DNA of 44,138 bases from Bdellovibrionota bacterium (GCA_049436045.1 JBMTHG010000003.1:1-44138), one strand, 5' to 3'; positions 1,852-14,600 are shown, numbered from the stretch's first letter. Numbers and translations: made by a program. Notes: generated by a model not told the origin, from the letters alone.

Positions 1852-3393
1852 ATGGAAGCTTGTTGGATCATCGATTTTGGCAGTCAATACACTCAGTTGA
1901 TTGCGCGAAAACTTCGTGAGCTGGGAGTTTTTAGTGAAGTTCTTTCACACGAAAAGTTTAAATCGATTTCTTCGATCGATAAAAACGTTCGAGCTTTGAT
2001 TTTATCGGGGGGGCCGGCAAGCGTTTTAGACGCTCACGAAGAGACAGACTTTCCCTGGAAGAAAATTGAGATTCCGGTTTTGGGAATTTGCTATGGAATG
2101 CAACTGATGGCTAAAAGTTTTGGCGGCCAGGTGAAGTCAGGTTTAGCCAGAGAGTATGGAGTTCACGAGATTCGTTTTGAAAACTCTCGTTTGGCGACTC
2201 AAACTCAATCGACGAAGACTCAAGCCACAAAAGTTTTGATGTCGCACGGTGATCATGTGGAAGAAGTGCCTTCTGATTTTTTTGTCACCGCGCGCTCTGA
2301 ATCTGGAGTGATCGCTGCCATGGAGCATGCATCAAAGCCTTGGTTTGGATTTCAGTTTCACCCTGAAGTTCATCATACGGAACTTGGCACGAGCTTTTTA
2401 AAAAAGTTTTTAGAGCTGTCGGGATTTCAGTTTGATTGGAAGCCCCAGCATATTTTTGATGAGATCCGCGAGGAGCTTCAGAGAAAATTTCCAGAGGGTA
2501 AAATTTTGTGCGCTTTAAGTGGTGGGGTTGATTCGACTGTTTTGGCAGTTCTTTTGAATAAGATTTTTCCCGAGCGCGTGCTTTGTTTTTGTGTCGATAC
2601 GGGCCTACTCAGAAAAGATGAGATTAAAAATTTGCGGCAAATGTTTGAAGATGAGTTTCATTTTCCGATTGAGATCATCGATGCGAGTTAAAGATTTTTA
2701 TCGGCTTTAAGTGGAGTAGAAGACCCAGAAGAAAAGCGAAGGCGAATCGGTCATTTGTTTATTGATATCTTTCGAGAAGAGAGCCGTGCTCATGCAGACT
2801 TTCAATATTTGGCGCAGGGCACTTTGTATCCCGATGTCATTGAAAGCACGAGTGCGCATGGTGGGGCGACGGCCAAGATCAAGAGCCATCATAATGTCGG
2901 GGGCTTGCCTTCGGATCTCTCATTTGAATTGGTGGAGCCTTTTCGAATGCTCTTTAAAGATGAAGTCAGACGACTCGGTGAGTTTTTGGGAATTTCAAAA
3001 TCTTTTGTTTTGAGACAGCCCTTTCCTGGGCCGGGCTTGGCGGTGCGCGTGGTGGGTGAGGTGACTCGTGACAGACTTGCGAAGCTTCGAGAGGCAGACT
3101 GGCATCTTCAAGAAATTTTAAAAGCTCGTGGGCTCTATCAGAATTTATGGCAGTCTTTTTGTGTATATCTGCCGTTAAAATCGGTGGGTGTGATGGGAGA
3201 CGCCAGAACTTATGAGGAATGCATTGGCGTTCGATGTATTGAATCTGAAGACGGAATGACGGCGCATGTCGCAGACATTCCTGGTCCTGTGCTTCACGAG
3301 ATTTCGACTCGAATCATCAACTCTGTCTCAGGAATTAACCGAGTGGTTTATGATATTTCGTCAAAACCTCCTGCCACCATCGAGTGGGAGTGA
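1852..3393 (+). pseudogene. guaA: GMP synthase interrupted by a single in-frame TAA at 2689-2691 (real nonsense mutation or base-call error)
   Basis: DFGSQYTQLIAR, GICYGMQ, FHPEV and SGGVDS lie before the stop. The same frame continues [16 protein letters not shown]...[11 protein letters not shown]...KSHHNVGG...KPPATIEWE. Confidence 0.93.
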
Positions 3394-3394
3394 T
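3376..3394 (+). repeat. Left att-like repeat (guaA 3' end)
   Basis: ACCATCGAGTGGGAGTGAT matches 8766-8784 at 16/19 positions. Confidence 0.75.
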
Positions 3395-3747
3395 TCAAGT
3401 TGAGCGCGCATTTATAAATATTCATGTGGTTTAGTTAAAACGAATTTTTCTGTAACTATAGATGAGGGCGAAGAAGAATGCCGAGAGCGGCGTTCACTTG
3501 ATGCCTCAGCAGAGCTGGTCTGTAACCCTTTGTTATGAGCAAGGGTCGTCGACCGAATACTTTTCTGCAACCTAGGAGGATAATTTTGCATACTTCAGTG
3601 CATAATCGAAGTCCAAAAGAAACGTGCTGTTCAGTCTCTTAACAAATCGATAGTATAGGGCTGAAATTTGATCAAGGAAGATGAGAAATGAAATGTTATG
3701 GCGAATGGAAAGCTAGAAAGTTTTTTTATTAAAGGGCGAGAAAGATA

Positions 3748-4023
3748 ATGAATATTGAACAAGCAAAAAAAATAGTTATTCAAGCCATATCCGAGGCACT
3801 CGAAGGTAAAGTGGCGATTTCGGAAGAGATGGAGCTAATTGGTGGAGAGTCCTTATTGGATTCAATGAAATTAGTTGAAGTTTGCCTTGCTTTGGAAGAC
3901 TTGGCTGATGAGCATGGGTTTGAATTCGATTGGACCTCGGAGGCCGCTATGTCTAAATCTCGCAGCATGTTCCGAAGTGTTGCGGCTCTTGCTGAAGAGT
4001 TTGCAAGTCAATCGGAGGGCTAA
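3748..4023 (+). CDS. Acyl carrier protein (accessory type)
   Basis: 91 aa, acidic, LLDSMKLV phosphopantetheine attachment motif. Confidence 0.88.
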   Translation: MNIEQAKKIVIQAISEALEGKVAISEEMELIGGESLLDSMKLVEVCLALEDLADEHGFEFDWTSEAAMSKSRSMFRSVAALAEEFASQSEG

Positions 4024-4701
4024 GTGATTATTGTAACTGGTGCGAGTCGAGGACTAGGGAAAGCAATTTCTGAGCGGTTAATGAATAAAGGTGAGGAAGT
4101 TATTGGCCTAGTCAGATCGCCAGACGGCCTAAACATTGCCGCTATTGAATGTGACATAAGCGAGTACTCCTCGGTTAAAATGGCTGCTCGCGAAGTTAAG
4201 AAAATGAAGAAGCCCATCAAAGCATTTATCAATGTCGCTGGTGTTGCATCAATGAATATGGCTGTCACTACTAATGAATCGACTGTTCAGAAGCTGATTC
4301 AAACGAACCTCGTTGGAACCATCTATTGTTGTCAGCTTTTCGCACCATTAATGATACGTCAGAAGCACGGCAGTTTTATAAACTTTTCAACTATAGCTGT
4401 TGCACTAGCCTTAAAGGGTGAATCTGTTTATGCGGCTTCAAAGGCGGGTGTTGAATCATTTTCCCGTACGTTTGCAAGAGAAATGGCTGACTTTAACATT
4501 AGAGTGAACTGCATTGCACCAGGGCCCATACGTACAGACCTTTTAAGAGGTATAACGGATTCACAGATTGAAAAGATAACGTCTCAGCAAGTGATTTCAA
4601 GACAATTCCAAAAGTCAGATGTCTGTGATTTGGTCGAGCTGTTAATCGATGAACGAGCGGCCTCGTTAAGTGGGCAAGTGCTCAATGTTGGTGGTGTTTG
4701 A
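4024..4701 (+). CDS. SDR family oxidoreductase, FabG-like
   Basis: TGASRGLG, NVAG, YAASK, NCIAPG. Confidence 0.93.
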   Translation: MIIVTGASRGLGKAISERLMNKGEEVIGLVRSPDGLNIAAIECDISEYSSVKMAAREVKKMKKPIKAFINVAGVASMNMAVTTNESTVQKLIQTNLVGTIYCCQLFAPLMIRQKHGSFINFSTIAVALALKGESVYAASKAGVESFSRTFAREMADFNIRVNCIAPGPIRTDLLRGITDSQIEKITSQQVISRQFQKSDVCDLVELLIDERAASLSGQVLNVGGV

Positions 4702-5996
4702 TGAAATTGATAGATAAGCTTAAAGAGCGTTGGAACGAAATTGATTATCCATTTTTAGTTCACTCAACAGGTTCTTTACGATTCAGTGAGATAGCAGATC
4801 AAGAATCTGTAGATTTATCTGAAGTAAAGAGCGGTGATGTTGTAGCTCTTATCGGAGATTTTGATCCTCAATCAATTTTAACGTTATTGGAACTCATAGA
4901 TAAAAATGTGATTCTTGTACCCCTTACCCTAGGCACTCGATCACAACATGAATATTTTTTTGAATCAGCATTGGTTGATGTGGTGATTGAAGGTGGTTCG
5001 GTTAGGCGCTTACGGCATAATAATAAACATGAGTTTATTGATAAATTGCGCTCAGACAAACATGCTGGCTTAGTGTTATTTTCAACAGGTACTACAGGTA
5101 GGCCAAAAGCCATTTTGCATGACTTAACTCTGTTTATGCGGCGCTTTGAAACTCCGCGTCCCACCCTAAAAACGATAAACTTTTTATTGTTTGATCATAT
5201 CGGCGGTCTGAATACATTGTTTCATACTTTATTTAACAAGGGCACGGTTGTAGCGCCTAAGTCTCGGAGTGTTGAAAACATCTTGGCTGCGTGTTCCGAG
5301 CACAAAGTCGAGGTGTTGCCCACAACTCCCACATTTCTTCGAATGATGTTAATGAGTGGTTTGATTCCAGATAGTGTGCCAGAGACACTGCGTATCATTA
5401 CGTATGGCACTGAGCGCATGGATCAACCCACACTCGATGCGCTATGTGAATTGCTTCCGAATGTAGATTTTAGGCAAACCTTTGGAATGTCTGAGCTGGG
5501 CATAGTTCGTGTCAAAAGCGAACAGCGAAACAGTCTGTTTATGAAAGTGGGTGGTGAGGGTGTTGAAACAAGAGTTGTAGATAATGTGCTTGAGATCCGT
5601 TCGCAGACGCGAATGCTAGGTTATCTAAATGCAGAAAGTCCTTTTGATAGCGATGGTTGGTATAACACTAAGGATGTTGTAGAGGTAAAAGGTGACTACT
5701 ACAAAGTCACTGGACGTGTCAGTGATGTTATTAATGTTGGTGGACTTAAGTTCATGGCTAGTGAAGTTGAACGTGTTGCGCTCACCTTTCCTAATGTCTC
5801 ACTAGTCAAAGCTATACCTAAGCAGAACCCAATTACTGGGCAGCATGTAGAGTTGCTTGTTCAGCCGACTAGTGAAGACGATATTGAGAAAGAAGCATTG
5901 TTGGCTTTTCTTAAAGAACGATTACAGCCGCACATGGTTCCAAAAAGAATTCGTGTTGAGAGTGTTGCTGTTGGACATAGATTTAAAAAGGCTTAA
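4701..5996 (+). CDS. AMP-binding acyl-CoA/acyl-ACP ligase (ANL superfamily)
   Basis: FSTGTTGRPK P-loop, FGMSE, GWYNTKD, GRVSDVINVGG. The start overlaps the SDR stop (TGATG). Confidence 0.9.
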   Translation: MKLIDKLKERWNEIDYPFLVHSTGSLRFSEIADQESVDLSEVKSGDVVALIGDFDPQSILTLLELIDKNVILVPLTLGTRSQHEYFFESALVDVVIEGGSVRRLRHNNKHEFIDKLRSDKHAGLVLFSTGTTGRPKAILHDLTLFMRRFETPRPTLKTINFLLFDHIGGLNTLFHTLFNKGTVVAPKSRSVENILAACSEHKVEVLPTTPTFLRMMLMSGLIPDSVPETLRIITYGTERMDQPTLDALCELLPNVDFRQTFGMSELGIVRVKSEQRNSLFMKVGGEGVETRVVDNVLEIRSQTRMLGYLNAESPFDSDGWYNTKDVVEVKGDYYKVTGRVSDVINVGGLKFMASEVERVALTFPNVSLVKAIPKQNPITGQHVELLVQPTSEDDIEKEALLAFLKERLQPHMVPKRIRVESVAVGHRFKKA

Positions 5997-5998
5997 TT

Positions 5999-6583
5999 AT
6001 GATTAGTTTTCATGAAGTTACAGCTGATGATGCTGAGCGTATTCTGCGATGGCGTATGTCTCATCGTGTCACTAAGTTTATGAACACTGATGTTGAATTT
6101 AATCTCGACAATCAGCGGCAATGGCTGGAATCAGCTTATCAGAAAACACATTATTATCACTGGATCATTAAGATTGAAGGTAAGCCAGCTGGGTTGATTA
6201 ACGTGTGCGATTACGACCCAGTCAATAAGACATCTTCTTGGGGTTTTTACATCGGTGATGATGACTTAGTAGGTTACGGCGCATTCATACCACCGATGCT
6301 TTATAATTTTTTGTTTTATCAACTTGAGGTTGAGAACATTCAAGTTGAAGTCTTTTATAACAACCTTAGTGTGATAGGACTTCATCAACTTCATGGCTAT
6401 AAATTTTTGCCAAGTAAGGATCGTGTCATAGATAAAAATGGTCGAGAGATTCTACTCGTTGCCATGAATCTATCATCAGCTGATTGGGCAGGTAATAAAC
6501 GATTTAAGAAGCAGATTGCTGAGTTCCCAACAAGTATGTGGGAATCCAAACCTATTCATCTAAAAAATATAGTCGCAGACTAA
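5999..6583 (+). CDS. pseH: PseH-like GNAT N-acyltransferase
   Basis: ILRWR...KFMNTD...QRQW, WGFYIG and N..VIGLHQLHG resemble the PseH family. It lies near pseC and pseG. Confidence 0.7.
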   Translation: MISFHEVTADDAERILRWRMSHRVTKFMNTDVEFNLDNQRQWLESAYQKTHYYHWIIKIEGKPAGLINVCDYDPVNKTSSWGFYIGDDDLVGYGAFIPPMLYNFLFYQLEVENIQVEVFYNNLSVIGLHQLHGYKFLPSKDRVIDKNGREILLVAMNLSSADWAGNKRFKKQIAEFPTSMWESKPIHLKNIVAD

Positions 6584-6592
6584 TCTTTTCTT

Positions 6593-6940
6593 ATGATTTT
6601 TTCACTTGAAAAAATTTGTGACAACGATGTTCATATTAACGTTTTGTATGGCTTGTTAAATTCGAGAATTCACAAAATAAGTCACAAGAATATTCCATCA
6701 TTAGAAGAGCATAGCAATTTTGTTAGGAATCATCCTTATAGAGCTTGGCTTCTTGTGCAGGTTTTGGATGAAGAATTTGAGCCGTTGCCTGAGTTAAAGT
6801 CAATGAGAGCCGCACAATTCTCTATCAATGTAGCTCCTAGCAATATCAATTTAATTGAGGCTTTAGAGCAATATGGTTGTAAATGCTCACAAATTAGCTT
6901 CTTCCTTAAGTGTAGTAACCCAACGCACATATGCCGCTAA
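6593..6940 (+). CDS. Short GNAT-like hypothetical protein, possibly internally deleted
   Basis: LYGLL...ISH..IPSLEEH..FV.NHPYRAW and INVAPSN motifs, which I recall from nonulosonic acid cluster proteins. Short for a full GNAT fold. Confidence 0.5.
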   Translation: MIFSLEKICDNDVHINVLYGLLNSRIHKISHKNIPSLEEHSNFVRNHPYRAWLLVQVLDEEFEPLPELKSMRAAQFSINVAPSNINLIEALEQYGCKCSQISFFLKCSNPTHICR

Positions 6941-7215
6941 AAAAACAACCGTTTAATGCTGACTAGATAGAGATATACGACGAAGGAGTTGTGTATAAGC
7001 GCGGCGAGTATTGGCAAATGCGTATGTGGTTAGGCAAAGAAAAGAAAGACGCACGGTTTAGCTTACGCACACGCAATAGAGATGCAGCAATAGATAAAGC
7101 GAAAAAGGTTTATCACGAGCTATTGGCATTAGCTGGACACAGCAATAAGGCGACTACACAACGCTACATTGACTTGCGTCCAGCAGTTATTAAAGCTGCG
7201 GTTGAGTTAGTTTGA
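6931..7215 (+). pseudogene. Tyrosine integrase remnant (N-terminal arm-binding segment fused to the C-terminal catalytic tail)
   Basis: MPLKKQPFNAD*IEIYDEGVVYKRGEYWQMRMWL...SLRTRNRDAAIDKAK joined directly to box II LAGHSNKATTQRY. In-frame TAG at 6964-6966, core domain missing. Confidence 0.8.
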
Positions 7216-8535
7216 TTAGATTGCCAAATAGTTCAAAAAAGCTTGCGCTTTCCTGTTTAACGTATTTGGTAATCTGCGAGTATTGTATTGAGAGCCAACT
7301 TCAGCATTGTTCCAATGGTAAACATTTGTCAAAAGTCCAAATAAGTATCTGGCGTCAATGAATATTTGGCTATGTGGAGTAGGTAGAGTGGATGTGCTAT
7401 CCATAAAGGCGATATTGTTAGAAGCTTTTTTATTGGCATTTATGATGGCACATTGGTCATTGGGAAGATTGAAGCAAAAATAATAATCTTCTTCACATTC
7501 AGATTTAGTTATCGCATTACGCGTGGCGGAAACCAGTAATCTTTTTAGCGGCAGTTGGGATATCTCTTGTTCAGAAATGAGGCGTTCATAATCCATTTTC
7601 TTATTCTTTATTTCGTCAATACACTTTTGTATACCAACCTCGTCGTATTTCTTAGTTCTAATACCGATAGGTTTTAGTGTGCTTGTATTGATTTCTCCTC
7701 CATTGTCTGCCAGAACAACAGCATTACTATCAAACTCTAAAACTTCAACTGGGTCTGCTACACCTCTTACAGCATTTAAATGTGTAAGTTTCCCTCCTAA
7801 CACATATTTGCCAGCGAATGGAATATTTACCTTCGCATCCATTTTGTGAATAAGTGTTTTATATCTTTCAAAAAAAGATTTTTTCTTTTTCTCTGCCTCT
7901 GAATATAGATTGTTATCTGTTGCATCAAAATAAGTTTGCGGATACGAGCCAGCCCCCGTGTAACCGCAAAGTAAAATATCAACTTCCCCAGCAGCATCCT
8001 TTAAGGTTTGCCTCATCGGTTCATCAAAAATAATATCATTAGCGTTTACAAGACAATGCGTTTTATTTGTTGTCTTGTATTTGATAACTATTGCTGAATC
8101 TATGTCTGACAAGCTGCCAGTGCGATGTGGAATAATTTGTAACTCAGTATTGCCTATGGTTAGTGGCTCTTTAAGTATCGTTGCTTCAATACCGTCTGCT
8201 CGCATCTTTCCTGCCAAATGGTTGGGGTTATGGTCTGCGATTAGAATCTTTTTAAAGCCATATTTTTCAAAATAACTTTTAAGAAAATCACTATCGTAAT
8301 GATCTGGATGGATGTGGGAAATATAGATATAGTCAACATCACCAATACTATTTAGAGGATTATTTATTTTTGGATACTGATACCAACTTCCATCATATAT
8401 TCCCTCGGTAAACCAAGGGTCGTGAAGTATTACTAAATCGGGTGTTTGGGTAATGACGCAAGCAGAGTAAATATAGCGAACGTTTATAGAATCAGAGGTG
8501 TGATTTGTATCTTGCGTAAGTTTAGTCATTACCAT
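7216..8535 (-). CDS. Metallo-beta-lactamase-fold protein, CMP-Neu5Ac hydroxylase/UlaG-like, without a Rieske domain
   Basis: DPWF..G.Y.GSW, YIYISHIHPDH (HxHxDH), IDSA, NAND, IPFAG. Confidence 0.8.
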   Translation of the reverse strand: MVMTKLTQDTNHTSDSINVRYIYSACVITQTPDLVILHDPWFTEGIYDGSWYQYPKINNPLNSIGDVDYIYISHIHPDHYDSDFLKSYFEKYGFKKILIADHNPNHLAGKMRADGIEATILKEPLTIGNTELQIIPHRTGSLSDIDSAIVIKYKTTNKTHCLVNANDIIFDEPMRQTLKDAAGEVDILLCGYTGAGSYPQTYFDATDNNLYSEAEKKKKSFFERYKTLIHKMDAKVNIPFAGKYVLGGKLTHLNAVRGVADPVEVLEFDSNAVVLADNGGEINTSTLKPIGIRTKKYDEVGIQKCIDEIKNKKMDYERLISEQEISQLPLKRLLVSATRNAITKSECEEDYYFCFNLPNDQCAIINANKKASNNIAFMDSTSTLPTPHSQIFIDARYLFGLLTNVYHWNNAEVGSQYNTRRLPNTLNRKAQAFLNYLAI

Positions 8536-8689
8536 TCCAAAAAGTTGTCGTAACCTCTTTCATTTTACGTCTACGTCAAAGCTTTGAGAAGCGTTTTTGC
8601 TTTTTGTCGCGCACCATATAAACATAAGCGTGTAAAATCAAATCAGCGAAACAACTTCCGAAGAGTAGAGTGGTTAAACACGCAATGGT

Positions 8690-8711
8690 AAAGTTATACA
8701 AAAGTTACACA
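8690..8711 (+). repeat. Tandem 11-bp repeat, candidate integrase arm-type binding sites
   Basis: AAAGTTATACA AAAGTTACACA about 55 bp inside the right att. An inverted TGTAACT copy lies at 3451, about 57 bp inside the left att. Confidence 0.5.
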
Positions 8712-8765
8712 GCAGACTTAGGCTGCGTTGTAACCCTTAAAAATGCTAGATTTTCAGCCAACGTT

Positions 8766-8784
8766 ACTATTGAGTTGGAGTGAT
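8766..8784 (+). repeat. Right att-like repeat
   Basis: ACTATTGAGTTGGAGTGAT, which reads T-I-E-L-E-stop versus T-I-E-W-E-stop in guaA. Confidence 0.75.
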
Positions 8785-8851
8785 GTGATTTGGGCTTCAA
8801 AAATTTTCTTGTGGTCTAATTGAAAGGCTTAAGAGAAAATCTTTTTAACTT

Positions 8852-10000
8852 ATGATTCCCTATGGTCGTCAAGAAATTCTAGATGAAGATATTGAAGCTG
8901 TGATTCAGGTTTTAAAATCTGATTTTCTCACGCAGGGGCCTGCCGTTCCTCGCTTCGAAGAAGCGATCAAAAAAGTGACTCATGCCAAATATGCCATCGC
9001 GATGAATAGTGCGACCTCAGCTCTTCATGCCGCTTGTGCCGCTCTCGATTTGAAAGAAGGCGATTGGCTTTGGACTTCGCCAAATACTTTCGTGGCCTCT
9101 GCCAATTGCGCAAGATACTGCGGTGCTCAAGTTGATTTTGTTGACATTGATTCAAAAACTGCAAATTTGTGTGTCAACCAACTGGAAAATAAACTCAAAG
9201 AGGCCAAGGCTAAAAATCGTTTGCCTAAAATTCTTATTCCGGTTCATCTTTCTGGGCTCTCCTGCGATATGGAAGGGATCGCTCGTCTTACGCAAGCTTA
9301 CGGCATCAAAATTATTGAAGATGCTTCACACGCGATCGGAGCAAGTTATCGCGAGCGACCTGTGGGCTCTTGTGACTTTAGCGACATCGTTGTTTTTAGT
9401 TTTCACCCTGTAAAGATCGTGACCACGGGTGAGGGCGGCGCTGCCGTCACGAATGATGCGAGTTTAGCCGCTCGCATGGCTCGATTTCGAACTCACGGCA
9501 TCACACGTGATCCCTCTGAAATGAGTCGCGAGCCCGATGGCCCCTGGTATTACGAGCAAATTGATTTGGGCTGGAATTATCGAATGACTGACATTCAGGC
9601 GGCTCTTGGCGTTTCTCAAATGCAACGCTTAGAAAAATATGTTCATCGTCGAAATGAATTGGCAAAGCGATACGATCAACTCTTGAAGGAACTTCCCATT
9701 CAAAGGCCCATTCTTCCGACGGACTCTTTGTCTTCATTTCATCTCTATGTCGTTCGAGTGAGTTCTAAAAATCATCGAAAAATTTTTGAGGGCCTGCGCT
9801 CTCGAGGAATTGGAGTGAACTTGCACTATATTCCGGTTCACTTTCATCCTTATTATCAAAGTTTAGGATTTAAGAAGGGCCAGTTTCCTGAGGCCGAGCG
9901 ATATTATTCAGAGGCCATCAGTCTGCCTTTGTTTGCACAAATGACAGAGAGTGAACAAGATCAGGTCGTGGCCGCTCTAAAGTCAGAATTGGAAACCTAA
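8852..10000 (+). CDS. pseC: UDP-4-amino-4,6-dideoxy-N-acetyl-beta-L-altrosamine transaminase
   Basis: MIPYGRQ..FLTQGP, NSATSALH, EDASHA, FSFHPVKIVTTGEGG, PWYYEQ..LGWNYRMTDIQAALG. Confidence 0.95.
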   Translation: MIPYGRQEILDEDIEAVIQVLKSDFLTQGPAVPRFEEAIKKVTHAKYAIAMNSATSALHAACAALDLKEGDWLWTSPNTFVASANCARYCGAQVDFVDIDSKTANLCVNQLENKLKEAKAKNRLPKILIPVHLSGLSCDMEGIARLTQAYGIKIIEDASHAIGASYRERPVGSCDFSDIVVFSFHPVKIVTTGEGGAAVTNDASLAARMARFRTHGITRDPSEMSREPDGPWYYEQIDLGWNYRMTDIQAALGVSQMQRLEKYVHRRNELAKRYDQLLKELPIQRPILPTDSLSSFHLYVVRVSSKNHRKIFEGLRSRGIGVNLHYIPVHFHPYYQSLGFKKGQFPEAERYYSEAISLPLFAQMTESEQDQVVAALKSELET

Positions 10001-10007
10001 GAAAGTT

Positions 10008-11093
10008 ATGAAAGCGAAAATCGCTTTTCGAGTCGACGCCTCTCTAGAAATAGGAACGGGTCATGTGATTCGATGTTTGACCTTGGCCGAATCGCTTCGA
10101 CATCAAAACTTTGCGTGTCTTTTTATCTGCAGAGAAAAAAAATCTCATCTTAAGACTCTGATCGAGTTGCGCGGGTTTGAGTGCCAACTTTTGCCAACTG
10201 AAACCCCTGAAGACGATGGTTCTACAACTCATTCGGCATGGCTTGGCGTTTCGCAACAAGAAGATGCGGCCCAAACAGAGAGTATCTTAAGAAAAATAAT
10301 GCCCGAATGGCTTATCGTTGATCATTATTCTCTCGATTCCACTTGGGAAAATAGGCTTCGAGCCTTTGCCAAAAAAATAATGGTGATTGATGATCTGGCC
10401 GATCGTTCACATTCTTGTGATCTTCTTCTCGATCAAAATCTCGGTCGAAAAGATCTAGATTATGATTCAAGATTAGATAATGGCTGTTTGCGCTTGATCG
10501 GGCCCGACTACGCGCTTCTTCGCCCAGAGTTTTTAAAAATTCGAGATCAAAGTTTGCTGAGAAGAGGCGATGGAAAGCTAAATCGCATTTTGATTTCGCT
10601 CGGTGGGGCTGATCCTAGCAATATCAGCTCTAAAGTTTTAGAGCTTCTCGCTAAGACAAAATTGCCAGTGACCACGAAAATTCACCTCGTTCTTGGGGAG
10701 CTCTCTCCTTGGCGCGATGAACTTCTAGCCCAAGCCTCTCGAATGCCCTTCGAGACAAAAGTTCTTGTGGGCGTTTCTGATATGGCCTCGCTCATGGCCG
10801 AGGCTGATCTTGGCATTGGCGCCGCGGGCACGAGTTCGTGGGAGAGATGTTGTTTAGGGCTTCCGACTTTGCTTGTGGTTTTGGCTCAGAATCAAAAGCT
10901 CGCGGCAAAAGCTCTCAGCGATTGTGGTGCGGCTTTATTGCTTGGCGAAAAAGAAAATTTTCAAAATGATTTTGATAAAGTTTTTTCAGATCTTTTAAAG
11001 CCAAATCAGCTTTCTCAAATGTCACAAGCCGCAGCTCATCTGGTAGATGGCCGAGGAACCCAGAGAGTTATAGAAAAAATACTTTCTCTGTAA
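10008..11093 (+). CDS. pseG: UDP-2,4-diacetamido-2,4,6-trideoxy-beta-L-altropyranose hydrolase
   Basis: FRVDAS.EIGTGHVIRCL, VDHY, IDDLADR, GAAGTSSWERCCLGLP. Confidence 0.95.
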   Translation: MKAKIAFRVDASLEIGTGHVIRCLTLAESLRHQNFACLFICREKKSHLKTLIELRGFECQLLPTETPEDDGSTTHSAWLGVSQQEDAAQTESILRKIMPEWLIVDHYSLDSTWENRLRAFAKKIMVIDDLADRSHSCDLLLDQNLGRKDLDYDSRLDNGCLRLIGPDYALLRPEFLKIRDQSLLRRGDGKLNRILISLGGADPSNISSKVLELLAKTKLPVTTKIHLVLGELSPWRDELLAQASRMPFETKVLVGVSDMASLMAEADLGIGAAGTSSWERCCLGLPTLLVVLAQNQKLAAKALSDCGAALLLGEKENFQNDFDKVFSDLLKPNQLSQMSQAAAHLVDGRGTQRVIEKILSL

Positions 11094-11114
11094 GAATGAT
11101 GAATTAATCATTCT
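11093..11114. terminator. Weak hairpin between convergent pseG and pseI
   Basis: AGAATGAT-gaatta-ATCATTCT, an AT-rich 8-bp stem. Confidence 0.3.
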
Positions 11115-11117
11115 GAT

Positions 11118-12164
11118 TCATTCATCAGAAAATGCGCTCCAGCTTACGGCTTCACCGCGTGAGACATCTTTTGATAATTTCTTTCCAAGGATTTCATCGA
11201 AATGCTTAGGAGCTAATCCGTAGCCCGGACGAATTCGTCGAATGTCTTCTTTCGTGATTTGAGCGCCGGCTTTTAAATCTTTTACAAAATAAAGTGATCT
11301 TCGAAAAACTTTGCTCTTTGATTCAGTCTCGGGTCTTGAAAAATTATCTTTGCCAAGAGAAAGCCAGGCTTTTCGTGTTGTTTCGACGAGTGACTTCAAC
11401 TCATGAGGCTCAATTGAAAAATCACTGTCAGGGCCTTTTTCGCTGCGGTCGATGGTGAAGTGTTTTTCAATCGCGACAGCACCCAGAGCCACGGCGCCAA
11501 TGGCGGCAGTATGATCGAGTGTGTGATCAGAAAGACCGACTTCAACCTGAAACTGCTTTTTAAGGCTTAAAATATTTCGAAGCTGCGCCTCTTCCGTGGG
11601 AGCCGGGTAGCTGCTGATGCAATGAAACAACAAAATAGAATCTGCGCCAGCCGATCGAGCGGCTTCTACCGCTTCACCAATTTCGGTTTCAGAGGCCATG
11701 CCCGTGGACATCAAAATGGGTTTTTTTGTTCGTGCGGCTCTTTGAATCAACGGAAGGTCTGTGAGTTCAAAGGAGGCGATTTTGTAGGCAGGCGCATCTA
11801 AACTTTCTAAGAGCTCGACGGCACTTTCATCGAAAGGAGTAGAAAACAAAGTCACATCAATTTTTTTTGCAAAATCAAAGAGCTCCTGATGCCAAGCGAA
11901 AGGGGTATAAGCCTCTTTATAAAGATCATAGAGTTTGTAGCCGTCCCAAAGTCCGCCTTTGATCATGAAATCGGCTTTGTCGCAATCAATCGTCATCGTG
12001 TCGGCTTCATAGGTTTGAATTTTAACGGCATGAGCCCCGGTTTCTTTTGCTGCAGCCATTGTCTTTTTTGCGCGCTCGATCGATCCGTTATGATTTGCTG
12101 AAACTTCAGCAATGATGAAGGGTTCGTGAGAGCTGTTAATGATTCTATTTTTGATTTTGAACAT
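11118..12164 (-). CDS. pseI: Pseudaminic acid synthase
   Basis: IIAEVSANHNG, KIQTY, YKIASFE, GLSDHT, IEKHF, C-terminal SAF domain (RRSLY, IRPGYGL). Likely start is MFKI at 12164. Confidence 0.95.
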   Translation of the reverse strand: MFKIKNRIINSSHEPFIIAEVSANHNGSIERAKKTMAAAKETGAHAVKIQTYEADTMTIDCDKADFMIKGGLWDGYKLYDLYKEAYTPFAWHQELFDFAKKIDVTLFSTPFDESAVELLESLDAPAYKIASFELTDLPLIQRAARTKKPILMSTGMASETEIGEAVEAARSAGADSILLFHCISSYPAPTEEAQLRNILSLKKQFQVEVGLSDHTLDHTAAIGAVALGAVAIEKHFTIDRSEKGPDSDFSIEPHELKSLVETTRKAWLSLGKDNFSRPETESKSKVFRRSLYFVKDLKAGAQITKEDIRRIRPGYGLAPKHFDEILGKKLSKDVSRGEAVSWSAFSDE

Positions 12165-12219
12165 AAATTTTCTCTGATTGATAAAACTTATTTTACCGCA
12201 TTGGGGCCCGAAAGCTAGC

Positions 12220-12855
12220 TTAAGTCTTTTTATCCAAAATTTTTCGCAAGCGAAGAACCTCTTTAGAGATTTCAGAATCCCATCCAGAGAACTCTTTCGG
12301 CAAATCGGAGGTTCGATGAAAACTTCCCTTTTCGGATTGTGCCACAGGTTTAAATTCCATAGCGATGATTTGATCGAGATTCTCGATGAATAGTTTTTCC
12401 ATTTCAAAAAAAAGCCGCTGATAAGTTTGTGAAAATGTTTTCTCACTTTCATTGAACTGAACAAGCTTTTGATAGAGTATCGGGCCGGTGTCTATGCCCT
12501 CATCTATGAAGTGAATGCTCACGCCACTTGGAGTGCCTTCAAAAAACGACCAAAAGTTGGAGTGTGCGCCTCGATTCCAGGGAAGATACGACATATGAAG
12601 ATTGATGATGGGAGTTTTCGCTTCTTTAATTAGCTTTTGATGAAGAATGTGCCTGTATCCAAAACTGATAATCAAATCATAAGAGCTCAGTGAATTTATC
12701 TTTTCAGAGGTTTGCCAAACTTCACAGTTTTGATCGGCTAGAATGTTCGGGAGTCGAGTTTGTGTTTCATCGTAACCCAGAAACAAAATCTTTCTCGCGG
12801 GCTGCGGGATAGATTTGAGCAAGCGCGGTACAGTCGCAATTTTCTCACTGCTCAT
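12220..12855 (-). CDS. Formyltransferase N-terminal domain protein (probable sugar N-formyltransferase)
   Basis: ISFGYRHIL, INLHMSYLPWNRGAH, GVSIHFIDEGIDTGPI. Confidence 0.88.
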   Translation of the reverse strand: MSSEKIATVPRLLKSIPQPARKILFLGYDETQTRLPNILADQNCEVWQTSEKINSLSSYDLIISFGYRHILHQKLIKEAKTPIINLHMSYLPWNRGAHSNFWSFFEGTPSGVSIHFIDEGIDTGPILYQKLVQFNESEKTFSQTYQRLFFEMEKLFIENLDQIIAMEFKPVAQSEKGSFHRTSDLPKEFSGWDSEISKEVLRLRKILDKKT

Positions 12856-12989
12856 TGCTAAGAATCTCCAAGCCTGATCGAAAGACTCGTCAACATCCCC
12901 TAGGAATATCAGCAGCTTAGTTTAAAGACACGAAGAAGCTCGACAATTTAGAATCTTAGGTCTTTCTTCTGGGGTGTGTAAAAATTACA

Positions 12990-13018
12990 TTGACCAAGGT
13001 CTTGGTTTTGGGCATCCT
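12990..13018 (+). promoter_or_regulatory. Candidate sigma70 promoter overlapped by a palindromic operator
   Basis: TTGACC-17 nt-CATCCT. Inverted repeat ACCAAG-gt-CTTGGT at 12993-13006. Confidence 0.45.
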
Positions 13019-13024
13019 AAAACT

Positions 13025-13215
13025 TAGTACAGCAAGCGTTAGAGAAAAGCTTTTTGAATGATTTGGTTGGAGATTCTTCAAGACAATGGGGGGGGAGTTT
13101 CAAAAGCCGAATTTATGGGGGGCTGATAAAGTGGTTCCTGGTGGGGACCCGAGCTAAGGCTGCGATGAGATGACCCGATGGGGTAGTAGAGTCATCTTGT
13201 CGCAGCCTTTTTTTT
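13025..13215 (+). ncRNA. Candidate small RNA with repeated RUGGGG tracts
   Basis: Plus-strand promoter and terminator in a gap where both neighbouring genes are on the minus strand. G-runs at 13088-95, 13117-22, 13143-46 and 13180-83. Confidence 0.5.
13156..13215 (+). terminator. Intrinsic terminator
   Basis: 19-bp stem (13156-13174 with 13191-13209), including two G-U pairs that form only on the plus strand, with a T8 run at 13208-13215. Confidence 0.8.
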
Positions 13216-13226
13216 ACCCAAGTAAT

Positions 13227-14600
13227 TTATTTAGATTTCGGAGCTTGAAGGGGCAAGAAGCCCATAGGCGCAATAATCTTTTCAACATTCACATTCTCTC
13301 GGCCAACGATCTGAACTGTCACGTCTTTGAGATAAGTTTTCATGACTCTTTGAACATCCTCAGGACTCACCTTCGCTAGGCGATTGATAAAGCTATTAGA
13401 GTTTTCCCAGCCAATTCCAAAAACTTCGTAGAGCGAAAAAATAGCGGCTTGAGAGGCTCGAGTTTCTCGCCCAGAATACCAAGACGAAAGAAATTTTCGC
13501 ACCTGCAAATCTAAAAGCTCGGGCGAGACCATTTCGACTTGAAGCTTTTTAACTTCATCAAACATCACTTTTACAGCTTCTTCGAGCTTGGTAGAGCTCA
13601 CATAAAGACTGCCCGAATTGATTCGAGAGTTTCCGAGAGAGGCTCTCACGGCGTAGGTGAGCCCTCGTTTTGTTCTCACTTCATCAAAAAGCCGATTATC
13701 TAAAATCTGAAGAGCAATCGCTAGAGCCGGATAATCTTCATGAAATAATGCTGGCGCTCTAAACTTTGCCAAAAAATAGGTCGTCGGAGCATCAAACTTT
13801 TCAAAATATACTCGGCTTTCATTTTTTAATGCTTCAGTGACTTCAGGCGTGCGAGTGCCGCTCTCAAATTTAGAAAAATATTGCTCGATCAGCTCAGTGC
13901 TTTCTTTTTGAGAAAGTTGACCCACGATTACAAAAAGCAAATTAGATTTTCCAAAAGATTTTTGGGCAGCCGCCACAATGTCTGATCGGGTGATTTCGGC
14001 AATGCTATCTTCATAGCCCGTTGGGCGACGATAGTAGGGATGATCTCGGTAAAATGATTTGTGCATTAAAAGCTGAAGCAAAGAATCAGGATTTTGTTTT
14101 TCACTCTGAAGCCCATGAGCGGCTTGAGCTTTTAACAAATCGAGCTCGCTTTGTTCAAAAGAGGCCGCTGACATCATCTCTGCCGCAAGATTCAAGACTT
14201 CAGGTAAAAATCTTTTCAGAGATTTGATTTCAATATCCAAGGCGTCATAACCCGCATCAAAACTCAAAGTGGCACCCGTTCGAATCAGAATCTCATTGAT
14301 CTTCTCTTTGCTAAATGACTTCGTGCCTTTATAGAGCATACTCGTCATGAGGGCTAAAGTTCCCGCCTTGGGAGCAAGATCAACTCCTCCAAAGCCGCTG
14401 ATTTGAATCGCTACAATTTCACTTGAGATATCTTCATAGGCAGGAGTCTCATGCAAAATCACGGGCATTCCAGCGGCGCTAAAGCTGCGGGTATTTTTCG
14501 TGAGGTCAAAACTTTGTGCTAACATATCGCTGGATCTCCCCATCATTATCAGTGCGAAAAAAAATAGAAGTTTCATCAATTTCATTTTCAAAATTCTCAT
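13227..14600 (-). CDS. M16B (pitrilysin family) peptidase, non-catalytic partner subunit
   Basis: Signal peptide, no HxxEH motif, NRLFDEVRTKRGLTY motif. Confidence 0.9.
   Translation of the reverse strand: MRILKMKLMKLLFFFALIMMGRSSDMLAQSFDLTKNTRSFSAAGMPVILHETPAYEDISSEIVAIQISGFGGVDLAPKAGTLALMTSMLYKGTKSFSKEKINEILIRTGATLSFDAGYDALDIEIKSLKRFLPEVLNLAAEMMSAASFEQSELDLLKAQAAHGLQSEKQNPDSLLQLLMHKSFYRDHPYYRRPTGYEDSIAEITRSDIVAAAQKSFGKSNLLFVIVGQLSQKESTELIEQYFSKFESGTRTPEVTEALKNESRVYFEKFDAPTTYFLAKFRAPALFHEDYPALAIALQILDNRLFDEVRTKRGLTYAVRASLGNSRINSGSLYVSSTKLEEAVKVMFDEVKKLQVEMVSPELLDLQVRKFLSSWYSGRETRASQAAIFSLYEVFGIGWENSNSFINRLAKVSPEDVQRVMKTYLKDVTVQIVGRENVNVEKIIAPMGFLPLQAPKSK

Follow-up and report, generated by a model that had tools for sequence, protein, structure and literature searches.

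The window analysed here is the whole of a 44,138-nucleotide stretch of a Bdellovibrionota bacterium (GCA_049436045.1 JBMTHG010000003.1:1-44138, read on one strand, 5' to 3'), from an assembly of 2.17 Mb in 425 contigs. Directly behind guaA it carries a decayed integrative island (3394-8826) that sits in an attachment (att) site at the 3' end of that gene and retains an intact four-gene tailoring kit, which encodes an acyl carrier protein (ACP), a short-chain dehydrogenase/reductase (SDR), an adenylate-forming (ANL) ligase, and a GNAT N-acyltransferase. We use the terms island and guaA att site because of a direct repeat, an integrase remnant, a low G+C content, and empty sites in relatives. 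Judging from homology and gene context, the most likely role of the kit is to attach an unusual acyl group to pseudaminic acid (Pse), a sugar of the flagellum, and we think it probable that this island in its guaA site makes N7-acyl Pse, its kit acting as an acyl-carrier-dependent replacement for PseH. Little is known of the enzymes that attach N-acyl groups other than acetyl to pseudaminic and related acids (PMC11040635); the kit, with the co-occurrence of its GNAT with a ligase and an SDR in 31 of 33 loci, yields a specific hypothesis of four proteins that lends itself to reconstitution in vitro and, if true, offers an enzymatic route to Pse derivatives.

An earlier note on this DNA had named the genes of the kit and the neighbouring pse genes (ACP, SDR, ligase, GNAT, pseC, pseG, pseI, and a formyltransferase), and family models or motifs bear out each identification at its coordinates. 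All four kit genes lie on the plus strand. The first (3748..4023) encodes a dedicated carrier protein of 91 aa in which Ser39, part of an LDSM motif, is the presumed phosphopantetheine site; this residue is invariant in 16 of 16 aligned homologs and aligns to the LDSM serine of DltC. When a profile of the 16 homologs was compared with the PDB, all 45 matches at E<=1 were carrier proteins, the best being DltC at a weak 0.0095. The second gene (4024..4701) encodes a FabG-like classical SDR (adh_short, 147 bits), a predicted ketoreductase that keeps its TGASRGLG and YAASK motifs (classical TGxxxGxG and YxxxK) and scores below the cut-off of the FabG equivalog model TIGR01830 (155.5 vs 297.75 bits). 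The third (4698..5996) encodes the ligase and presumed carrier-protein loader, an AMP-binding protein (PF00501, 63.2 bits against a cut-off of 29.9) with STGTTGRPK intact at residues 129-137. A stand-alone ANL ligase with a small dedicated carrier protein recalls DltA/DltC; unlike that pair, the kit has an obligatorily coupled SDR, and its acceptor would be a nucleotide sugar rather than teichoic acid. The fourth gene (5999..6583) encodes the PseH/FdhC-related GNAT, and behind it on the same strand lies o115 (6593..6940), an accessory domain of 115 aa.

The first three genes form a triad that recurs far beyond this genome. We scanned one genome per species for relatives of the ligase and kept the best 80 of 133; these are 58-82% identical to the window ligase and come from Alpha-, Beta-, and Gammaproteobacteria, Verrucomicrobiota, Planctomycetota, Chloroflexota, Actinomycetota, Bacteroidota, Acidobacteriota, Bdellovibrionota, and Desulfovibrio. 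The order ACP-SDR-ligase and its spacing are constant in 77 of the 80 loci, the remaining 3 starting inside the SDR gene, and carrier homologs 45-91% identical to the window's are found in the 77 that reach that gene. DNA identity between these loci and the window is just 63-75%, and there has therefore been no recent transfer; a quick tree of the ligases crosses taxonomic lines. As a separate observation, four ligases from metagenome-assembled genomes labelled Klebsiella and Chloroflexota (L024, L033, L028, and L031) are near-identical, with branch lengths of 0.025-0.041, which suggests either a very recent transfer or a binning error.

What follows the ligase is far less constant. We could identify a co-directional open reading frame (ORF) directly after it in 69 of the 80 loci, and in 45 of these the frame encodes an acyltransferase from one of four superfamilies: a GNAT (22 loci), a PglD-like hexapeptide transferase (17), a KASIII-like enzyme (5), or an Antibiotic_NAT-like enzyme (1). 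Other enzymes follow in 6 loci, and the product belongs to no family in 18. Because the next gene varies in superfamily while the triad is constant, the triad is a fixed donor-like module paired with a changing acyltransferase.

The link to Pse comes through the GNAT. It is the only PseH-like protein encoded in the genome, the next best match reaching just 26 bits, and the absence of a separate pseH beside the pse genes, which had been pointed out before, is thereby upheld. A single-sequence search of the PDB with the GNAT gives PseH (4xpk) as the best match (1.1e-5), and a profile of its subfamily gives FdhC (3.8e-14) followed by PseH (4.6e-13). All 28 invariant positions of the subfamily are retained in the window protein. 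A scan with an alignment of 13 GNATs as query yielded 43 loci (L064 being mapped separately). Where the GNAT is at least 33% identical to the window's, the SDR and ligase genes stand beside it in 31 of 33 loci, and a PseI homolog lies within 7 kb in 17 of the 33; among canonical PseH-like GNATs (22-28% identical), by contrast, a ligase is found in 0 of 10 loci.

Three versions of this GNAT can be distinguished, namely the window type, an Alteromonadaceae type that sits inside pseB-pseC-pseI-pseG...Maf operons, and a Lysinibacillus type with the order GNAT, ACP, ligase, SDR, pseF, pseG, pseI, pseC. A small carrier protein with a DSx motif is present in all five of the divergent loci that were read (three Alteromonadaceae and two Lysinibacillus), and loci L066 and L273 have the order pseB-pseC-pseG-ACP-SDR-ligase-GNAT-pseI. 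Mapping the L066/L273, Alteromonadaceae, and Lysinibacillus operons by tblastn revealed no second homolog of the window GNAT, and because no other homolog was detected there, the GNAT occupies the place of PseH in these pse operons. It has the GNAT fold in common with canonical PseH and takes its place in other bacteria, yet it is just 22-29% identical to the canonical PseH of pse operons. Its donor is probably not acetyl-CoA (CoA, coenzyme A), because a ligase, an SDR, and a carrier protein accompany it. Homologs of o115 form a single protein with the GNAT in Verrucomicrobia and stand alone in SAR116 and Glaciecola, and the domain is missing from the working-looking operons L026, L066, and L081.

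The scheme that we infer, including its acyl-ACP donor, acceptor amine, acyl group, and flagellin target, would run as follows. The ANL ligase would adenylate a short carboxylic acid and load it onto the dedicated carrier protein; the FabG-like SDR would adjust the tethered acyl group, most likely reducing a keto group to a hydroxyl (e.g., 3-oxobutyryl to 3-hydroxybutyryl); and the GNAT would move the acyl group to the C4 amine of UDP-4-amino-4,6-dideoxy-beta-L-AltNAc, the product of PseB (encoded on another contig) and PseC. PseG, PseI, a cytidylyltransferase, and a Maf transferase would then deliver the Pse5Ac7(acyl) sugar to flagellin. This branch would run beside a Pse5Ac7Fo branch made by the PseJ-type formyltransferase, which the window carries in addition to the kit, unlike the complete pse operons described above. 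That the formyltransferase and the GNAT would meet at one amine, as the earlier note proposed, agrees with homology, by which both are expected to act on the C4 amine.

The choice of acyl group leans on FdhC of Acinetobacter nosocomialis (PDB 5kta), which we take to be a GNAT that transfers 3-hydroxybutanoyl to a dTDP-amino sugar. It is the top profile match of the GNAT subfamily and an amino-sugar N-acyltransferase for a larger acyl group. Its substrate is a dTDP-3-amino sugar, unlike the acceptor proposed for the window GNAT, and we know of no dedicated carrier protein for it. 3-Hydroxybutyryl is our leading guess by analogy, because of the obligatory ketoreductase, the kinship with FdhC, and the known natural Pse variants (PMC11040635).

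Gene sets of this kind have been described before in another light. According to PMC7874193 and PMC4875605, the Aeromonas group II flagellin glycosylation islands have orf1-orf3 (ACP, 3-oxoacyl-ACP reductase, and AMP-dependent synthetase) downstream of pseH, and enterobacterial islands carry Acp/FabG/CaiC genes, so that the three kinds of gene in the triad adjoin pseH there. An Aeromonas locus (L044, 75% identity) is among our 80 ligase homologs. Those islands add LuxE and LuxC, and the published accounts read the sets, without a test, as fatty-acid channelling or as "liposugar" synthesis; the window kit, unlike them, is minimal, lies on a guaA island, and is read here as a short-acyl donor for the GNAT. 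In the literature covered (open PMC and bioRxiv only), a carrier protein is linked to N-acylation of these sugars solely in the two island surveys. The Shewanella sfm cluster was considered as a parallel and rejected, since it lacks a ligase and an ACP and encodes a TPP (thiamine pyrophosphate) enzyme, a methyltransferase, and an ATP-grasp protein. In Gayadomonas (L284 8526-13466), the kit is followed by a GT2 gene, a LuxC-like reductase gene, and a gene for a 1217-aa Maf protein, an arrangement that ties the kit to the LuxC/LuxE genes of the Aeromonas islands.

One could thus argue that the triad serves a different acceptor, with fatty or other acyl groups destined for a "liposugar", and that the GNAT is an ordinary PseH variant using acetyl-CoA or acyl-CoA. 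The published interpretation of the Aeromonas and Enterobacteriaceae sets (PMC7874193 and PMC4875605) speaks for this, as do the LuxC or LuxE genes that accompany the set in those islands and in L284, and the loci in which the ligase is followed by no recognisable family (18 of 69) or by other enzymes (6 of 69). The window, however, lacks genes with which to build a chain (LuxC, LuxE, ketosynthase, dehydratase, or enoyl reductase); the acyltransferase behind the ligase switches superfamily while the triad stays constant (45 of 69); and members of the GNAT subfamily nearly always come with the ligase and SDR (31 of 33). We regard this explanation as unlikely. If the Pse-acylating reading is true, it accounts for the "fatty acid" genes long noted in flagellin glycosylation islands.

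The boundaries of the island are marked by a direct repeat on the plus strand. The target gene guaA (1852..3393, plus strand) is matched by NF000848 over both halves, and its frame is continuous. The left, attL-like repeat (3376..3441) consists of the last 6 guaA codons, the stop codon, and approximately 48 nt beyond, and the right, attR-like repeat (8766..8826), a degenerate copy of the guaA end just upstream of pseC, is ~75% identical to it by local alignment. The score of this repeat against the intergenic region was reached by 0 of 300 shuffles. The left repeat contains the core GAGTGGGA (3382-3389), and the right repeat reads GAGTTGGA (8772-8779). According to PMC9376610, GAGTGGGA is the integration site of GIsul2 at the guaA 3' end. 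A search for a third att copy to the right of pseJ found none, the score lying below that of the shuffles; our first repeat candidate (3514-3530 vs 8722-8738) was superseded by the guaA-end repeat. The 1-kb bins of 4001-9000 have a G+C content of 0.37-0.42, as against 0.41-0.49 elsewhere.

Between the repeats lies what is left of a tyrosine integrase (6931..7215, plus strand). It contains the 74-aa ORF o74 (6991-7215), which joins residues 21-66 of a ~429-aa integrase to its last 31 residues, including the R-Y motif (judged from 471 relatives); o74 had no tblastn match in plasmids. In G033, a genome from another family of the same phylum, a member of the same integrase family stands right after guaA, again internally deleted, and this and the GAGTGGGA core substantiate the earlier suggestion that the guaA 3' end is an integration slot. 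The integrase family recurs in internal-deletion forms (P0004, P0005; L417 1561-1984), of 74, 206, and 214 aa and in G033, all of which keep the N-terminal part and the last 31 residues. The o115 gene lacks 35 internal residues that are present in all five of its homologs, and its last codons run into the integrase element, giving it a foreign 3' end.

The target gene itself contains TAA as an in-frame codon (2689-2691), at which four relatives encode E or Q, and no second guaA turned up in the assembly. The TAA is a genuine nonsense mutation, in a gene that is normally essential, or else an error of the consensus; recoding of TAA was rejected, as it ends 26 of the 40 ORFs of the window. A 6519-nt contig of an independent run from another study covers 2833-9351 with 9 differences, and the junctions are therefore not peculiar to this assembly. 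Parts of the window are also present in two further studies.

Relatives of this bacterium have a backbone of guaB, guaA, a gap, two M16 peptidase genes, a HAD gene, and trmJ, and it is the gap that varies. In 3 of 10 informative relatives the interval from guaA to the M16 genes is empty (0.4-0.6 kb), and elsewhere it holds 1.6 to >7.8 kb of varied cargo, including efflux genes, a radical SAM gene, and a large peptidase gene; in G007 the cargo encodes a DUF4910 protein, a methyltransferase, and a GNAT. No other variable junction was found in the ~20-kb backbone of the relatives. The comparison of cargo called for earlier thus shows that content downstream of guaA varies. In the window, a remnant of the ancestral guaA-M16 spacer (12972..13215, plus strand) begins with a 24-nt element (12972-12995) identical to one in the empty guaA-M16 site of G006 and ends in a terminator-like hairpin (13156-13215). 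The 24-nt element, which may be a conserved operator, holds a TGTAA...TTACA inverted repeat, and similar motifs occur downstream of guaA in G010 and G012. Because the relatives join guaA to the M16 genes and the ancestral spacer resumes at 12972, everything from 3394 to ~12970 is inserted relative to the family, and this includes the pse genes, which the earlier note had taken to be resident.

Unrelated marine bacteria have comparable kits at this chromosomal site. A guaA gene lies directly upstream of the triad in 7 of the 80 triad loci, and in two of these the guaA end is repeated: in L021 with 17 of 18 nt at 7.6 kb downstream, and in L042 with a small deletion at 3.5 kb downstream. Both repeats are intergenic and terminate the cargo; the DNA within either pair gave no recognisable integrase. 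In the quick tree, all 8 guaA-linked triads fall in one clade of 23 rows (SH-aLRT 100), and 0 of the 63 rows outside it are guaA-linked. In L270, guaA is followed by a GNAT gene and the accessory gene. Two Kistimonas genomes (L042 10304-10496 vs L097 6624-6813) have the triad island and its right flank in common at 86% identity and differ upstream, where one has guaA and the other a second copy of a 190-nt segment that is also found to the right of the island.

A close parallel is GIsul2, which resembles the island in its insertion at the guaA 3' end, its direct repeats with a GAGTGGGA core, and its tyrosine integrase. Its cargo is resistance, whereas that of the window is glycan tailoring with only a remnant of an integrase. 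The GIsul2 work (PMC9376610) describes an att-flanked unit without an integrase of its own being mobilised in trans. A wider and more tentative proposal, to which we give somewhat less than an even chance, is that the triad acts universally as a plug-in donor in the N-acylation of amino sugars, nonulosonic acids included, with the acyltransferase chosen to fit the sugar; that in one marine clade it travels as att-flanked, integrase-less islets moved in trans by guaA-specific integrases; and that the guaA terminus is a docking slot shared across phyla by surface-glycan tailoring genes. The recurrent docking at guaA shows how glycan tailoring genes cross phyla.

To the right of the island lie pseC (8852..10000, plus strand; TIGR03588, 559 bits), pseG (10008..11093, plus strand; TIGR03590, 307 bits), pseI (11118..12164, minus strand; TIGR03586, 497 bits), and, directly upstream of pseI on the same strand, the pseJ-type formyltransferase gene (12220..12855, minus strand), whose closest PDB structure is PseJ (6ci4; residues 22-200, 2.3e-37). 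PseI of the window is 59-64% identical to PseI of Burkholderiales and other proteobacteria, as against 49-53% to that of its own family. In a FastTree tree it groups with loci of SAR116, L200, and Prochlorococcus at a local support of 99, and several starred branches part it from six rows of the family. The SAR116 locus has the order ACP-SDR-ligase-GNAT-accessory-pseI, and in L200 a pseJ-pseI pair likewise lies downstream of guaA, at a distance of 2.5 kb. PseC of the window shares 58-65% identity with most of the PseC proteins encoded in proteobacterial pse operons. By these sequence comparisons, both PseI and PseC are xenologs.

The rest of the pathway is scattered over the genome. PseB, a Maf/PseD-type flagellin glycosyltransferase, and a second, borderline PseG are encoded together on contig C86, and this pseG2-pseB-maf group is kept in 14 of 14 family genomes. 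Relatives have pseF-pseH-pseI between leuS and ung (L184-L187); in this genome (contig C20, L154 9045-10922), a single inverted cytidylyltransferase gene replaces the three, and its product is just 39-45% identical to that of the relatives' pseF. The family's own pseF-pseH-pseI locus has thus been lost, and a genome of a predator lineage has had its ancestral pathway partly replaced by imported parts. Candidates for PseF are two CTP_transf_3 proteins, one of which is fused to a DUF4910 domain. A supposed PseC of the relatives, encoded 24-29 kb from guaA, was rejected as a solitary aminotransferase in a housekeeping context, and its gene was not found in this genome. Proteins resembling aminopeptidases (DUF4910/DUF2172) turn up repeatedly among glycan genes: they are fused to a cytidylyltransferase here (L007, G000 C274), adjoin the triad in L078 (10089-11426), occupy the guaA slot of the relative G007 (L141 532-1815), and lie beside PseI in 5 of 80 PseI loci.

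Several observations weigh against an acyl-carrier-dependent replacement of PseH. The GNAT misses the cut-off of the PseH model TIGR03585 (90.4 bits, or 90.7 in the genome search, against 93.1) and retains a CoA-compatible G-x-G loop, and FdhC uses a CoA thioester in its 3-hydroxybutanoyl transfer. The carrier protein has no Pfam match even at E<=1, and the best of its profile matches in the PDB is weak, as given above. No PseF in the genome scores above the family cut-off. At the level of the triad, a NeuB-family gene is within reach in just 5 of 80 loci, and the triad is found in 0 of 80 loci centred on the closest PseI homologs. For these two reasons the triad is a general module, of which only the GNAT-bearing form is linked to Pse; the association with nonulosonate loci that the earlier note anticipated holds for the GNAT subfamily (17 of 33 with PseI) but not for the triad itself. 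As to the island, the ~75% identical repeat is borderline when considered over 10 kb (1 of 100 shuffles reached its score), and no reliable joint representing an excised or empty form was found across the island in the contigs of four runs, in which rare forms are invisible. The only long joint, from 4493 to 13975, had 21-letter sides, and we discounted it as matching other organisms by chance.

The signs of decay, namely the 35-residue deletion in o115, the integrase remnant, and the nonsense codon in guaA, belong to the same list, and they could be taken further to mean that the cassette, left over from an old integration, no longer functions and that only the PseJ branch (Pse5Ac7Fo) operates. 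The reduction of the integrase to 74 codons, the internally deleted o115 with its foreign 3' end, the nonsense codons in guaA and after the GNAT, and the degenerate att repeat would all fit. Yet the ACP, SDR, ligase, and GNAT are full length and keep their catalytic motifs and all invariant subfamily residues, the damaged accessory domain is dispensed with in the working-looking operons mentioned above, and the same block stands in the contigs of another study with 9 differences in 6.5 kb. We would give a dead cassette only a slim chance, and continue to favour an intact kit that makes N7-acyl Pse.

The remaining gene of the island (7216..8535, minus strand) encodes a 439-aa metalloenzyme with a metallo-beta-lactamase (MBL) fold. 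It had been called CMAH-like; the MBL fold stands, whereas the CMAH identity does not. CMAH has a Rieske iron-sulfur domain in addition to an MBL-like catalytic domain; the window protein matches PF13483 and PF12706 only, with an invariant HxHxDH motif (here HIHPDH), and no Rieske domain was matched at E<=1. A model built from 15 sequences (pLDDT 83.5) gave Foldseek matches to FrsH (1.2e-11) and CmlA (1.1e-9) at TM scores of 0.38-0.40, NAPE-PLD being similar and the overall range 0.38-0.44, and no solved CMAH structure was among the fold matches. FrsH and CmlA are diiron hydroxylases with carrier-tethered amino acids as substrates, and a modelled fold of this kind would fit an oxygenase or a hydrolase alike. 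The MBL protein has relatives in 25 metagenome loci, with 44-70% identity where the match is full length; the neighbours were scanned in 12 of them, the scan covering 53 of 61 ORFs. A NeuB-family gene lies near the homolog in 4 of the 12, and 3 of these (L392, L393, and L406) also have a PseJ-like formyltransferase gene, while the homolog in L398 adjoins pseB, pseC, and a cytidylyltransferase gene. The MBL protein is best described as a Pse-associated putative enzyme.

These neighbours bring up a scheme with two nitrogens, in which PseJ would formylate N7, the MBL enzyme would remove the N5 acetyl group or otherwise open N5, and the GNAT with its acyl-carrier protein would re-acylate N5. Such a sugar exists, according to PMC11040635, and the scheme would account for the presence of both a formyltransferase and an acyltransferase; the MBL gene is found with PseJ and the GNAT kit here, and the four loci just named associate MBL homologs with pseJ-like and NeuB genes or with pseB, pseC, and a cytidylyltransferase gene. 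The MBL gene is, however, found with the triad in 0 of 80 ligase loci, 0 of 42 GNAT loci, and 0 of 80 PseI loci. Complete pse operons without another homolog of the window GNAT fit the position of PseH instead, and the fold tells of no deacetylase, its top matches being diiron hydroxylases and phospholipase D. Re-acylation at N5 seems improbable to us on this balance, and N7 is preferred as the position of the acyl group.

For completeness, Rfam reported zero families at gathering score in the window, no tRNA genes were found in it, and PADLOC gave no match for the MBL protein, o74, or o115. The first gene of the window is guaB (388-1848), and housekeeping genes resume at 13227 with two M16 peptidases, a HAD hydrolase, trmJ, and others, through to ilvC and plsX.

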